This document shows, in pieces, positions 2,008-64,000 of a stretch of DNA of 64,000 nucleotides; within the stretch, counting starts at the first letter, position 1, and every line of letters starts with the position of its first letter. The DNA is from Eledone cirrhosa (lineage: Eukaryota): the NCBI GenBank assembly GCA_964016885.1, contig OZ024750.1, positions 44,268,001-44,332,000 of the forward strand, given 5' to 3'. The notes under the pieces were generated by a model that made no database searches, was not told the DNA's origin, and was given only the letters and a program-made list of their open reading frames with translations. The translations under genes and the position numbers were made by a program.

Positions 2008-2408
2008 ACAATATTAATAAATGGAAACTATATTTATAAAACCATATTTATTTCATTATATATATTTCAAGGATACCAAGTTAAATCATGGTATGCCTTC
2101 ATCAGACAAAATACAATATATAACAGTTTTACAAATAGATATTGACGTACCCTTTCAAAAAGGTGACCGTTGTTTTTGGAGGCCATCCGGATAGTAAAAC
2201 TGTTATATATTATATTTTGTCTGATGAAGGCATACCATGATTTAACTTGGTATCCTTGAAATATATATAATGAAATAAATATGGTTTTATAAATATAGTT
2301 TCCATTTCTTAATATTGTATATCTACTCCAATTATTTGTCGAGTGCTTTATATCAGTTATAATAATATTTGCTTGTTGTATCCCAACAATTTAAATAGAA
2401 CTTTTGCA
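2008..2408 (+). mobile_element. Family A fold-back Penelope-like mini-element in (TA)n
   Basis: Inverted arms at about 2008-2132 and 2194-2318, then an unpaired tail 2319-2408 with GAGTGCT at 2341. Flanked by (TA)n on both sides, with a hammerhead in each arm. Homologues at 3544, 14986 and 54369. Confidence 0.8.
2213..2277 (+). ncRNA. Minimal type-I hammerhead ribozyme (mirror copy on - strand at 2049-2113)
   Basis: tattttgt-CTGATGA-agg(c)atacca..tggtatcct-t-GAAA-tatata-TA-atgaaata. Stem I is 8 bp with 2 GU pairs, stem II is paired, stem III is palindromic, and the cleavage triplet is AUA. Confidence 0.8.
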
Positions 2409-2470
2409 TATATATATATATATATATATATATATATATATATATATATATATATATATATATATATATA

Positions 2471-2772
2471 GGAGGTGAGTTTTATTGTAGTACAATAAAG
2501 CAATGCAGATATCGGATAAGTAGCACTCTACAGTTTGTAGGATTGGAGGATAAATAATATATAAGATCAAAAGATGGTTAAAAGAGTTCCATGTATTTTA
2601 TTATGCGCATTTCAAAAACAAATATCATCATGCAATAACATTTGCGTTTTCGTCAGATAAACGGATAAAATAGGGAGACTTGATATGAAGGTTAAAACAC
2701 ACTTGTGAATAGTGCTGTTTTAAATCAAGATATCAAAATACATAGAACTCTTTTAACCATCTTTTGATCTTA
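2471..2772 (-). mobile_element. Family C fold-back element with hammerhead (2596-2661, - strand)
   Basis: The minus strand reads tttat-CTGACGA-aaacgcaaatgt..atatttgttttt-GAAA-tgcgca-TA-ataaa. Partial inverted arm at 2735-2772. Homologue at 50040-50350. Confidence 0.75.
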
Positions 2773-2828
2773 TATATATTATATATATATATATATATAT
2801 ATATATATATATACACACATATATATAT

Positions 2829-3218
2829 GGGATAACAAGTTATCGTTTTAGGTAATCCAGTTAGAGGATCGGCGGCCTTTAGACTCATCTGATCAATGAA
2901 ACAATTGTAAATACTGTAAATAAAACACTGTATATATTTATATATATATATATATATATATATATATATATATATATATATATATATATATATAGTCCTG
3001 TAGAAGCCTTTCTATATTATATATATATATATATATATAAATATAGTATTGTCATGTAACTCCTTATTGAACTGTAGTAGCAACGTATTGACATGGTGTG
3101 TTTCTAGGGCAATTTTTAATAAGTCTGGTGCAGACGATTCCTCTCTAAGTTTGAATACACCAGATTTTAGACTCATCAGATGAATGAAACAATTGTTAAT
3201 ACTGTAAATAAACACTGT
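2829..3218. mobile_element. Two related TA-embedded fragments (2829-2930, 3045-3218)
   Basis: Both end in tttagactcatc-gat-aatgaaacaattgt-aatactgtaaata(a)aacactg followed by (TA)n. No clean ribozyme fold. Confidence 0.5.
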
Positions 3219-3326
3219 ATATATATATATATATATATATATATATATATATATATATATATATATATATATATATATATATATATATATATATATATAT
3301 GTGTGTGTGTATATATATATATATAT

Positions 3327-59790: not shown

Positions 59791-60099
59791 CTCCACTCCC
59801 TCACTACCACACAGCCTTGTCGTACACCACTAGTGAGTGTACGAGAAGGTTAAGCATGTGAAAGAGCCGTCGTTGTGTCCTTCCCTGAGAAGTTTGTTGT
59901 GTAATCACCAAGGACATCAATAAGATAAATCTCTGTCGCTAAAGACACAGACGTCGTTATCACTGACACATATCACACACTATTGACAACCAGCTCTACA
60001 ATATTTCATAGCTAGGGTTTCAATCCTATAGTGCGGAGAATGCTGATATATATATATTATATATCCATACATATTATATACTATGTATGTATATATATA

Positions 60100-60303
60100 A
60101 AGGAACGATCAACTTTCGTCAAATCGGACCGAGGGAACAATGTTTCCGTTGGTCTTTCCAATTGCTAATACTATCTATCGGTCGCAACTCCAGGTAGAAG
60201 GAGCAACGTGAAATAAAGTGTCAAGGACATAACGCATCGCCAGGAATCGAACTCACAACCTTACGATTGCGAATCCAATTCTCTAACCACTCAGCCACAA
60301 GCC
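60100..60303 (-). mobile_element. tRNA-derived SINE (second family, CORE-like central motif)
   Basis: Minus-strand A-box TGGCTGAGTGG, B-box GTTCGATTCC, then tgtccttga..cactttatttcacgttgctcc. Confidence 0.8.
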
Positions 60304-60894
60304 TTCACATATATATATATATATATATATATATATATATATATATATATGTATATATATATGTATATACATATATATATATATATATATATATATATAT
60401 ATATATATATATTATATATATATATATATATATATTATATATATATATATATATATATATTATATATATATATATATATATATATATATATTATATATAT
60501 ATATATATATATATATATATTATATATATATATATATATATATATATATTATATATATATATATATATATATATTATATATATATATATATATATATATA
60601 TATATATATATATATATATATATGTATAATATATATATATATATACATATATATATATATATATATATATATATATATATATATATATATATATATATAT
60701 ATATATATAATATATATATATATATACATATATAATATATATATATATATATATATATATATATATATAAATGAAAAGTATAGAAATTATTGTAGCAAGA
60801 AGCCAACAGTATTCCATAATATATATATATGTATATATATATATATATATATATATATATATATATATATATATATATATATTATATATGTATA

Positions 60895-61611
60895 TAGTCG
60901 CATATATGCGACGTTATAGTCGCATATATGTTATAGAATGCCGTTAGCTTCTTGCTAAAACAATCTCTATACCTCTCATTTATATTTATACTCGGATTCT
61001 TTTCCTAGAGTGCTTAAACTATCTGTGACTAATCCCGGTTTTTTTCATAAAAACTGTGATAATTATTGCTATTTTGCTGAACTCCTTTGTAGAGTTTTTT
61101 TCAGAATGTATTTGACTGCTATTTCTTGTAAATAAACATTCACTTCCATCCTGACGTCACTAGCCCCGTTTTTTCCTCATGTGCTTTTTCATAAATACAC
61201 ATGAAGGCGAACTAGCCAGTTTTAGAATTCCCTTTTTCGGATTATATTACTGTGAGAGCCCTGGTTTTCTGTTGAGCTCTGCTGATGATTGAAATTCCAA
61301 CCGTGACCATCTCCACTGAAAGTTTTCATGAAATAGTCTTTTAAGACTATACAGAGCATTTGATGTTATTCCAAATTGAAGGATAAGTGTTTCAAACTTT
61401 ATTTTATCATGAGTTAAAGGTCTATAGATTTTCCCTGGATTTTACTAAATTCTGTGGATGAATTTATATCCTGATTCTCTTTTGAGATGAGTTTGAGTTA
61501 TTTTTCCTAAATCTTTCGTTAACTACTTTTCCCATCTTGACGTTATAGTCGCATATATGTTATAGAATGCCGTTAGCTTCTTGCTAAAACAATCTCTATA
61601 CCTCTCATTTA
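60895..61611 (+). mobile_element. Family H non-coding element with 72-bp direct terminal repeats
   Basis: gacgttatagtcgcatatatg..tacctctcattta at 60910 and 61539. Short 5' fold-back gtcgcatatatgcgac, GAGTGCT at 61008, and an inverted relative at 60769-60818. Confidence 0.7.
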
Positions 61612-61803
61612 TATATATATATATATTTTTTTTTTGATCATGTGAATGCCAATATTTATTAATATTCTGAAGAAATATTAATAGTTCCAGAAAATCTAGC
61701 TGTTGAGTGCTTCTAATCTATTGTAAAACTATATTCATTGATTAATCAATGAATATAGTTTTACAATATATATATATATATATATATATATATATATATA
61801 TAT

Positions 61804-64000
61804 AGTATTAATAATAAAATTGAAGACTAAAATCCAGAGGGCTCGATAAGGAAAATATATATCAAATATATAAGAACCGAAGAGCAAATATTTATTAAAA
61901 TAACAGATTAAAGTTTAAGCAAAGAATCGCTGCTTTCACCCTTAACGGGATCTTCTGAAACTAACAAAGTCAATCTGTAAACGCAGAACTGGATATTTCA
62001 AAAACCGTTGCAACCGGAGGAAGACAGGAAGACGATACTTTGGTTCATGGTGACGTTCGCTGGCAAAGAACGGGAAAAAACGAATAATACGTCATTAATA
62101 GGAGCGGTGAAAAACAATTACGTGCAAGGACAGAACCACGTTTATGGTATAAAAGCGGTCGTAGACTAATGTTCTCTAAGTGGTGCATAGAGACGTTCTC
62201 TGGCAATGAACGAAAAAACGAAGATAATAAGTCATATGTGGAGCGTGGAGAACAATAGCGTGCAAAGACAAAACCACGTAAATGTTATAGCAGAAGTCGT
62301 AGACTAAAATTCTAACTAGGAGACCGAATGAATCTCCGCTACAGAGTTAAGAATAAAGTAAATAAATACAATACAGAAGTAATAGGAACAAATAAATACA
62401 TACACGCAAACAGATACGTACATACACAAGCATACGCAAAACCTTACCATAGGTATACAAAACCACGCACATATAAATATGTGTATGTGTGTATGCCTGT
62501 GTACAAATAAATAAATAATTATATAAACGTATATAAGTAAATAAATACGTATATAACAAACGCACACACATACCTACAAATAAATACATGAAGGTTCGGA
62601 GACGTAAGTCAACTAAAACGAGAAGTACACATATACACCCACCCACCATACGTACGAACCTGCATACTCACGCAGACGCGAAACTCCCATATACACATAG
62701 CCAAGCCCTAAATACCAGAATATGTAAAAATTATACGCCAAAACAGTCAAATATACGTACGAGAAGGTATACATACCTTCACAAAACATACGGGTAATAT
62801 ATACTTACCTATGCAAAAAGTAAAGGAATAAACAAAACATATACTTAGCTCCCACATCAAGACGTAAATATCCACGTATAGATCGTGCTATCCGTTACGG
62901 TATAACGTAGGGCTGTAATACAGGAAAGTTTTGTGCAATTTATGTTTACAAGCCGAAATTGCCTCAGATTTTTTGTTTAAGATGTGGTCTGTGGCGTAGA
63001 GTATTTCCAGGGCCTCAGCGGCGCAGAGGTCACATGGTCTTTTATTTCCGTTATACGATCTAGCCCTAGCTAGGATCTCCCAGTGTAACTTATATTGGGT
63101 GTGGTTGTCTTTTAGACTCCAGATATAAGCTGAAAGTGACGTCATATTCCTTCTTAGAGGGTAACGAAAAGAATGGGTATGCATGTAAAGACGCTGCTTG
63201 AAACTATTGGCGGTTAACCCTATGTAGGCCCTACGGGACGTGGGTGTTACAACCTTACATTTGTAGACAATGTTACTAGAGAGGCATTTCCCGGATAGGG
63301 GACAATCAGCCCGATTCCTACAATTACAGTTAGTACTAACTACAGGGTTGCACGTGTTCCTACGGCTAGGTATTTTAGCTAAATTTGAAGCTGTGATGTT
63401 ATGTGCAAGGTTAGGAGTCGTTGAGTAAGAAATTTTAATAGTGTTTCTATTAAAAATTTTACTATATTTATGTGTAGGGGGAAAATGCTTCCTAAATTGG
63501 AAAGAAAGATCTTAGCTAATGGTGTGGCCACCTCCATATTATATGGTGGGTTAAACCAACAAATGCGACGGGATCTATTTCTTCTAGGTCTATTCTCGTA
63601 CTCTGTATATGCTACCTTATCGACAAATCCACTTCGAGCAAGAGCTTCATTGTAATAAGTGGAATGGTCGTTGAAAATGCGCTCGTTGCTGGAAAGACGG
63701 GAAAGCCTCAACGAAACGTTTTTTACCAGATTCTTGGTTATGCTGGCAGGACGGTTGGAATGCTTACTTATGTAATTAAGCGTATCATTCGGCTTTCTAT
63801 ACGGGTAATGCAACCCATTCAATAAATTGAGGGTAACGTCGAGGTAATTAACGACTGAGAGATTGGCCTCAACCTGTATAGAGAGGTTGAAGCCTTTAAA
63901 GAAGGCTGTGAGTTCTTTTCTGAATCTGTCGCAAGCACGAGGTCCGCACTTAGTCATGGTCAAAAGGCCATCGTCACGGTACAAACCACCGCCCGCGTTG
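61804..64000 (-). mobile_element. Penelope-like retroelement (Naiad-like), 3' portion; continues beyond the window
   Basis: RT C-terminus and GIY-YIG coding region, then an ~1.08-kb 3' UTR ending in (TA)n at about 61803. The terminus is shared with the family J hairpins. Confidence 0.88.
62888..64000 (-). pseudogene. PLE reverse transcriptase-GIY-YIG ORF with a 1-nt frameshift near 63495
   Basis: Frame 1: YRDDGL..VNYLDVTLNL..PYRKPN..WFNPPY. After the shift: KHFPPTHKYSKIFNRNTIKISYS..CNCRNRADCPLSGKCLSSNIVYKCKV..AYIGLTANSFKQRLYMH..LSAYIWSLK..CDLCAAE..LNKKSE..CKH, with stop at 62888. Confidence 0.88.

Follow-up and report, generated by a model that had tools for sequence, protein, structure and literature searches.

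Twin hairpins at the tandem junctions of Hydra-clade Penelope-like elements in Eledone cirrhosa: a candidate signal for internal reverse transcription starts

The window analysed here, a 64,000-nt stretch of the 3.0 Gb genome of Eledone cirrhosa (contig OZ024750.1; G000:C10:44268001-44332000), holds short repeats that end in (TA)n, several of them as inverted pairs, together with a 5'-truncated Penelope-like element and a retrozyme-like unit (Table 1). An initial annotation had pointed to a GAGYRCT-like word near the 3' ends of repeat families that it took to be unrelated, and the word is indeed present at all 13 sites that it named. Judged by their sequences, however, the families are homologous: they are the 3' ends of Penelope-like elements of the Hydra clade and non-coding derivatives of these, and the short pieces appear to be mostly truncated 3' ends of coding families. 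We found that the word forms the 3' side of a hairpin with a bulge, that this hairpin usually occurs twice at a tandem junction, and that the ends of inserted copies cluster next to one or the other hairpin. The twin hairpins probably position the reverse transcriptase (RT) at internal starts a few bases 5' of each.

GAGYRCT matched 30 times on both strands of the window (22 distinct places, 8 near-palindromic sites being counted twice), compared with 8.7 +/- 2.9 in 100 shuffles of the window. The distance of 35-60 nt to (TA)n claimed for it held for 10 of the 13 named sites; two lie at 62 and 66 nt, and the motif at 61008, being part of an internal tandem junction, lacks (TA)n within 400 nt. 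For a positional test, 120 stretches of 10 kb were picked blind (8 flanking the window), giving 1066 junctions in 666 clusters. GAGYRCT lay 33-66 nt from the junction in 18 clusters and five control words in 0-3; the reverse-complement word did so in 11, a count inflated by palindromy. The motif was also found nearer (0-32 nt, 10 clusters) and farther (67-100 nt, 16 clusters), so its distance to the downstream end is not constant, and we rejected a fixed spacing to the downstream (TA)n. Enrichment of the motif is real and the distance loose.

GAGY had been placed in an unpaired tail, but it pairs with an RCTC found 5' of the motif in nearly every family, and the whole reads RCTC, inner stem, loop, 2-nt bulge, GAGY and an RCT triplet. 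The half-site spacer ranges from about 5 to 60 nt. Combined with (TA)6, the hairpin pattern had 59,321 forward matches in the genome versus 2,446 for a reversed control (overlapping matches counted). Among 38 hairpins in which CTC/GAG was fixed by selection, the outer pair was A-T in 20, G-C in 17 and broken in one, and the A-T/G-C switch of the first hairpin (hairpin 1) mapped to about three events on the protein tree, as read by eye. Two of ten extra clusters had no partner for GAGY. In 30 hairpins fixed by position, the inner stem was paired at 64 of 90 positions, versus 45.3 +/- 3.8 after permutation, and only with the 2-nt bulge, other bulge lengths giving 24-31. For two sets of equal-length hairpins (10 and 9 members) RNAalifold returned the same fold; 6 of 9 pairs and 3 of 7 pairs had undergone double changes. 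Rfam gave no match at the gathering score in five junction loci; on the window, the 150 matches shown were all sub-threshold and almost all microRNAs, and none was relevant. A twister-sister-like ribozyme was considered and rejected on loop shape: in the portion of PMC11620745 available to us such ribozymes have 5x6 loops, versus the 0x2 bulge found here.

Family A, a coding family, is young: all 150 scored matches to the element in the window are 97-100% identical to it. Several copies (one is locus L201) keep a 713-aa open frame, just one open reading frame (ORF) of less than 3 kb with RT and, at its C terminus, a GIY-YIG domain, in a unit of about 3.2 kb with its untranslated regions (UTRs). 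Pfam gave no match to the element proteins, and the domain names rest on motifs. The family A protein carries CNCRNRADC (a CxCX5C linker), CDLC (CxxC), CKH (CxH) and DKT, which the available text of PMC8557442 gives as marks of the Hydra clade. It has 533 homologues, with 38-56% identity among the 120 listed. Tandem junctions of other families lead into homologous ORFs (29-79% protein identity); DKT replaces DKG in 13 of 16 coding junction loci and RW is followed by R, K or I, while four junction loci (M and N types) had no ORF match. The protein tree covers junction-locus proteins without an outgroup clade, and the Hydra assignment is by sequence marks. A hammerhead core pattern lies 66-111 nt 5' of hairpin 1 in 12 of 16 references, and insertion is into (TA)n, in which 212 of 268 copies end. 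The non-coding families M, N and S keep the hairpins. That some families would lack the motif was borne out: the family at 4470-4652 has no hairpin and that at 4681-5035 a degenerate one only (4981), and the motif is likewise missing from hammerhead clusters H2, H3 and H6. Tails of H3 and H6 (L001, L041, L063, L109) share a word resembling CAG-C-TAC-AAGAGTGAG and an AT-rich hairpin at the terminus, features common to another hammerhead lineage without GAGYRCT.

At tandem junctions a second hairpin (hairpin 2) usually follows the tail, between tail and ORF, and the twin pattern had 2,596 matches in the genome versus 50 for the reversed control. The 268 copies came from the stretches picked blind as well as from the window; they were mapped to 16 junction references, and 56 without a clean (TA)n end were set aside. 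Of the 212 TA-ended copies, 108 are tail-less and stop at hairpin 1, 97 are tailed and stop at hairpin 2, and 7 stop elsewhere, which places 205 between -16 and +4 of a hairpin start, an interval chosen post hoc for which a uniform distribution predicts 17%. Without family J the count was 183 of 188; once the anchor of family J had been moved to a variant hairpin (GCAC/GTGC), the interval from -10 to 0 held 186 of 212 ends. The modes are -5 and -3, the overlap with the TA run is mostly 2-4 nt (none in 40), and perfect TATATA sites in hammerhead stem III and inside hairpin 1 of family A are almost unused as ends. Offsets vary by family from -2 to -13, and the two hairpins lie 61 to 144 nt apart. 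Overall the end-to-hairpin offset is nearly fixed, whereas hairpin-hairpin, hammerhead and start-codon distances vary. Of the cis-signal roles proposed earlier, a signal for the RT is the best supported, but it is paired and inherited within one clade, and its fixed relation is to a copying start just 5' of the hairpin instead of to (TA)n 35-60 nt downstream; it may instead be a 3'-processing signal. Inverted pairs agree: of 72, 26 had an unclassified end, and 45 of the other 46 joined a tailed to a tail-less arm, the remaining one being tail-less twice and none tailed twice (p 7e-13, n=46). One-sided tails are already on record (PMC8557442, PMC3846280); the available parts of these papers do not connect them with twin hairpins. 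We found no second hairpin for the family at 4681-5035 (0 matches) or for a GAGCGCT family, whose two inspected loci were chance neighbours.

The two hairpins appear to be linked, since the 25 nt after hairpin 1 are complementary to the 25 nt after hairpin 2. Over 16 junctions the mean energy of this linking helix was -10.3 kcal/mol, versus -5.7 +/- 0.7 when permuted, and in 12 family representatives -9.0 versus -6.1 kcal/mol. Across 35 junctions the median helix length was 11 bp, and the helix began a median of 3 and 4 nt past the two triplets; among cognate pairs 54% had both linkers at 2-6 nt, versus 18% among non-cognate pairs. Helix sequences are specific to the family, and single-sequence folds recovered hairpins and helix in part only. 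Each helix strand has a TA-like patch, a hairpin and a triplet at its 5' end, which gives the junction a two-fold arrangement that would be suited to a dimeric enzyme. In family A (L202:5760-5790) hairpin 2 is closed by C(UUCG)G, a tetraloop of very high stability. Hairpin 2 of families H and I (L125:3460-3530 and L264) carries insertions of 57-100 nt with extra stems, implying that the loop is dispensable in sequence.

The architecture extends to distant relatives. A profile search found 78 marine-metagenome loci with 37-45% identity, of which 42 were usable (full ORF start and enough flank). Within 170 nt before the ORF, 37 of these had at least one hairpin and 22 had two, versus none in reversed and complemented controls and 6 of 42 in the reverse complement. 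The detector had been relaxed after a stricter version (23/42) and selects for the first inner pair, and covariation was taken solely from 21 loci chosen without a stem criterion; in these, inner positions were paired at 98 of 126, versus 65 permuted, again with a peak at the 2-nt bulge. The linking helix was better than the non-cognate mean in 20 of 20 loci, one mis-assigned locus being kept. Of 14 loci with an alignable 3' copy, 9 end clearly 0-12 nt before a hairpin; the other 5 are contig ends, run-through or ambiguous. Among published Hydra consensuses we saw the hairpin by eye in 4 of 6 (one from coral, two from sea cucumber and, as a variant, one from copepod). Hydra-1_Ajap has two hairpin copies and the helix, and the Hydra-1_Amil and Hydra-1_Obim consensuses stop without a tail.

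Family S, to which the motif at 61008 belongs, provides a natural loss of one site. Its units contain a type I hammerhead, the longest ATG frame has 45 aa, and the fold is no better than shuffles (z -1.3). Tandem arrays are dispersed over many contigs at 99-100% identity (at least 105 matches, from 40 of 2,301 candidates), and on its sequence family S looks like a very young retrozyme-like family with nearly one start site only. In hairpin 2, TTT replaces the triplet and the helix is reduced to -4.1 kcal/mol. Genome-wide, at least 745 ends lie at site 1, 2 at 8 nt before hairpin 2 and 1 further on, a pattern that fits the start-site model. The animal non-LTR (long terminal repeat) retrozymes of bioRxiv 10.64898/2026.07.22.740005, as far as its text was available, are alike in being non-coding, tandem and hammerhead-bearing. 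They differ in that the Hydra hairpin at the end site, a candidate cis-signal, is a feature of family S; the words 'hairpin', 'stem-loop' and 'tail' do not occur in the available text of that preprint.

In the mechanism that we favour, the RT would bind the structured template RNA and each hairpin would hold it for a start a few bases 5'. The short TA-like patch before each hairpin would anneal by 2-4 nt to the cut (TA)n end; site 1 would prime the tail-less arm and site 2 the tailed arm, and the two cDNAs would be joined head to head. What the genome offers is a conserved structure at a nearly fixed offset from the presumed cDNA starts. Because the full signal lies 3' of both starts, an inserted 3' end never carries all of it, and the complete template for full-length copies would be a tandem or circular RNA only. 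Neither arm receives a copy of hairpin 2 or of the second helix strand, and the template is therefore the most plausible place for both to act. It is also conceivable, although we hold this only tentatively, that the RNA is a two-fold scaffold on which a dimeric RT-endonuclease, one subunit per hairpin, primes both (TA)n cut ends at once. The idea of a dimer draws on the RNA layout and on the dimer predicted for Poseidon_Ac in the available text of Frangieh et al. 2024 (PMC11167929). According to that text the Poseidon enzyme initiates in vitro at two internal positions, which delimit the tail, requires RNA 3' of them, and acts where both strands are cut and extended, all as proposed here; it differs in belonging to another clade and in starting inside a stem-loop rich in AC without target homology. 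Figures S1-S2 excepted, the text examined names no conserved twin element.

Several observations weigh against this mechanism. The Poseidon_Ac start is not homologous to the cut DNA (PMC11167929, in the part available), unlike the 2-4 nt overlap seen here. Strand comparison of the hairpins gave 12 G-U and 9 A-C, and energies do not favour the sense strand; in the metagenome loci the sense-strand folding energy was the better one in 6 of 20. By the detector used, 5 of the 42 metagenome loci have no hairpin and 15 have one only. Four of 16 junctions (A, E, J and N), the young family A among them, have a weak linking helix. Variant hairpins still accompany ends, one family having CAA for RCT and another a degenerate 3' arm. 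Site 2 of family J fits only after post hoc re-anchoring, the first anchor having been arbitrary, and the 56 copies without a clean (TA)n end are left out of the end counts. Family S lost triplet, TA patch and helix jointly, so their effects are inseparable, and its spread with a single site shows that priming at two sites is not obligatory.

Four other explanations were weighed. The hairpins might direct RNA cleavage just 5' of themselves, by self-cleavage or a nuclease, with target-primed copying from the resulting 3' ends. Cleavage would leave the same genomic ends, and the invariant core, with its UN bulge and RCT triplet, might lend itself to catalysis or to binding by a nuclease; but the ends spread over about 10 nt and track the TA patch, no Rfam family matches, the 0x2 bulge is unlike the 5x6 loops (PMC11620745, in part), a cut at site 1 would take away the structure that frames site 2, and the Poseidon enzyme, by the available account (PMC11167929), starts internally on uncut RNA. 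We consider this unlikely. It is rather improbable that the structure is only a binding or packaging site for family-specific cis preference, with the nearest TA-like patch setting the start and no fixed geometry: the family-to-family range of offsets, the family-specific helix sequence and the ends at degenerate hairpins would all follow, whereas two sites per family at equal offsets from separate hairpins that lie 61-144 nt apart, with better TA sites nearby unused, would not.

The signal could instead act in DNA, the GIY-YIG endonuclease recognising a hairpin or cruciform in donor, target or cDNA. The strand comparison, with sense the better in 6 of 20 loci, leaves room for this, and the Drosophila virilis Penelope endonuclease was reported to need the tail (as cited in the available text of PMC11167929). 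Yet hairpin 2 and the 3' strand of the helix fix the tailed end without being copied into either arm, and insertions, 5'-truncated as reverse transcripts are, go into (TA)n that has no hairpin, which makes a DNA signal very improbable. We give hardly any weight to a promoter or translation-control element of the pseudo-LTR and 5' UTR whose match with the ends is incidental. Hairpin 2 does lie about 15-70 nt before the start codon, with the helix reaching towards it; however, the variable spacer with its covarying stem makes the core-promoter element proposed earlier unlikely, the hairpins are kept in the non-coding families M, N and S, and 186 of 212 ends and 45 of 46 pairs would be left unexplained.

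Positioning of the RT by the twin hairpins would place them, on sequence grounds, as a real, clade-wide and structured element among RT-recruiting RNA signals. The 3' stem-loops of stringent LINEs and SINEs (long and short interspersed nuclear elements), the R2 3' UTR and the template-flanking elements of telomerase RNA recruit the enzyme and set the template register. In LINE and R2 elements such signals lie 5' of a terminal start and are copied; the Hydra hairpins lie 3' of internal starts, two per junction, and are largely not copied. Our families resemble the Hydra clade of Craig et al. 2021 (PMC8557442, in the text and supplement examined) in the CxCX5C linker and DKT, in targeting (TA)n, in the 3' hammerhead, and in having inverted 5'-truncated copies and a tail at one end, and differ in tail length (about 60-145 nt here versus 30-40 nt there); hairpin, duplication and linking helix are not described in those parts. 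A literature search, which mostly did not reach subscription papers, found no description of the hairpin element. If the dimer-scaffold version is true, the internal-template design would be nearer to telomerase RNA than to LINE tails, would account for a tail on one side only and for the requirement of a tandem or circular RNA, and could be transferred to fix the copying site of a foreign RNA. Penelope-like elements are the closest retroelement relatives of telomerase, and the twin hairpins would bear on their choice of internal starts and on the tail that they leave on one arm only. The system provides a compact, defined RNA of about 130-200 nt whose pairs covary, together with natural variants that have lost a site and a young family with 713-aa open frames. 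It also provides a candidate cis-signal through which retrozymes would make use of the enzyme, and a means of marking where Hydra elements truly end.

Table 1. Hairpins and associated features in the window
Feature	Position	Strand	Remarks
Minimal type I hammerhead (CUGAUGA..GAAA, palindromic stem III)	2221..2270	+	sequence pattern only; upstream of hairpin 1
Hairpin 1 (ACTC..TC-GAGT-GCT), family C1	2325..2347	+	long arm of inverted short+long pair 2001-2404
Hairpin 1, family B, first base mutated	2522..2549	-	pair 2466-2787
Hairpin 1, family D	3457..3483	+	
Other family D motifs	25889, 40325, 47941(-), 52007, 54271		
Hairpin 1, family I	4223..4245	-	
Degenerate hairpin (ACTC-GTGT..ACAC-CT-CGGT)	4981..5002	+	just 3' of tail-less end, family 4681-5035
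Hairpin 1, family I	5202..5224	+	pair 5047-5264
Hairpin 1, family E	7627..7669	-	ACAC here, ACTC in junction copy L224
Hairpin 1, family C1	15228..15250	+	pair 14978-15314
Hairpin 1, family J (GAGT-ACC)	17567..17588	-	second site is a variant GCAC..GTGC hairpin
Hairpin 1, family C3	23795..23823	+	pair 23577-23892
Family K tailed copy, decayed motif AAGTGCT at 40102	40052..40152	+	missed by the initial annotation
Hairpin 1, family A (GAGC-CCT)	40749..40797	-	pair 40711-40925
Hairpin 1, family B	50270..50297	+	pair 50026-50353
Hairpin 1, G-C outer pair (GCTC..TA-GAGC-ACT)	55476..55499	+	second copy at 56008
Family S	60910..61612	+	one 629-bp non-coding retrozyme-like unit plus direct repeat; ends at tail-less site
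Family S hairpin 1, intact, at tandem junction	60990..61014	+	contains the 61008 motif
Family S hairpin 2, degenerate	61081..61098	+	GAGT-TTT; no adjoining TA patch; weak helix
Family S hammerhead motif	61282..61345	+	sequence pattern
Hairpin 1, family C4, 5' arm mutated	61684..61711	+	
5'-truncated Hydra-clade element, family A	61804..64000	-	RT from motif 4, CxCX5C linker, GIY-YIG; one frameshift; ORF ends 62888; 3' UTR with hammerhead and tail
Hairpin 1, tail of family A element	61838..61885	-	

Some further features of the repeats deserve mention. The idea of family D as mainly a hammerhead-less mini-unit found no support, an ORF-start junction being found in 0 of 13 copies and such units only in L226 and L232. 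Short tandem deletion units derived from family D do occur (L226:1500-2100, L232, L241-L259), comprising 257-bp units with both hairpins but no 5' half of the hammerhead, and 58-bp hairpin arrays. In families D, I and J (for example window 3390, 5101 and 17655) 5' ends and fold-back points cluster 55-73 nt before hairpin 1; this cluster, at or inside the hammerhead, may mark a transcription start. At 2408-2469 and 61766-61803 different families stand tail to tail on one (TA)n run, which suggests repeated insertion beside earlier copies. Finally, an uninterrupted 473-aa frame at 19322-20743 (+) encodes a Forkhead domain (Pfam E 2e-34) and is apparently a single-exon Fox gene amid the repeats.

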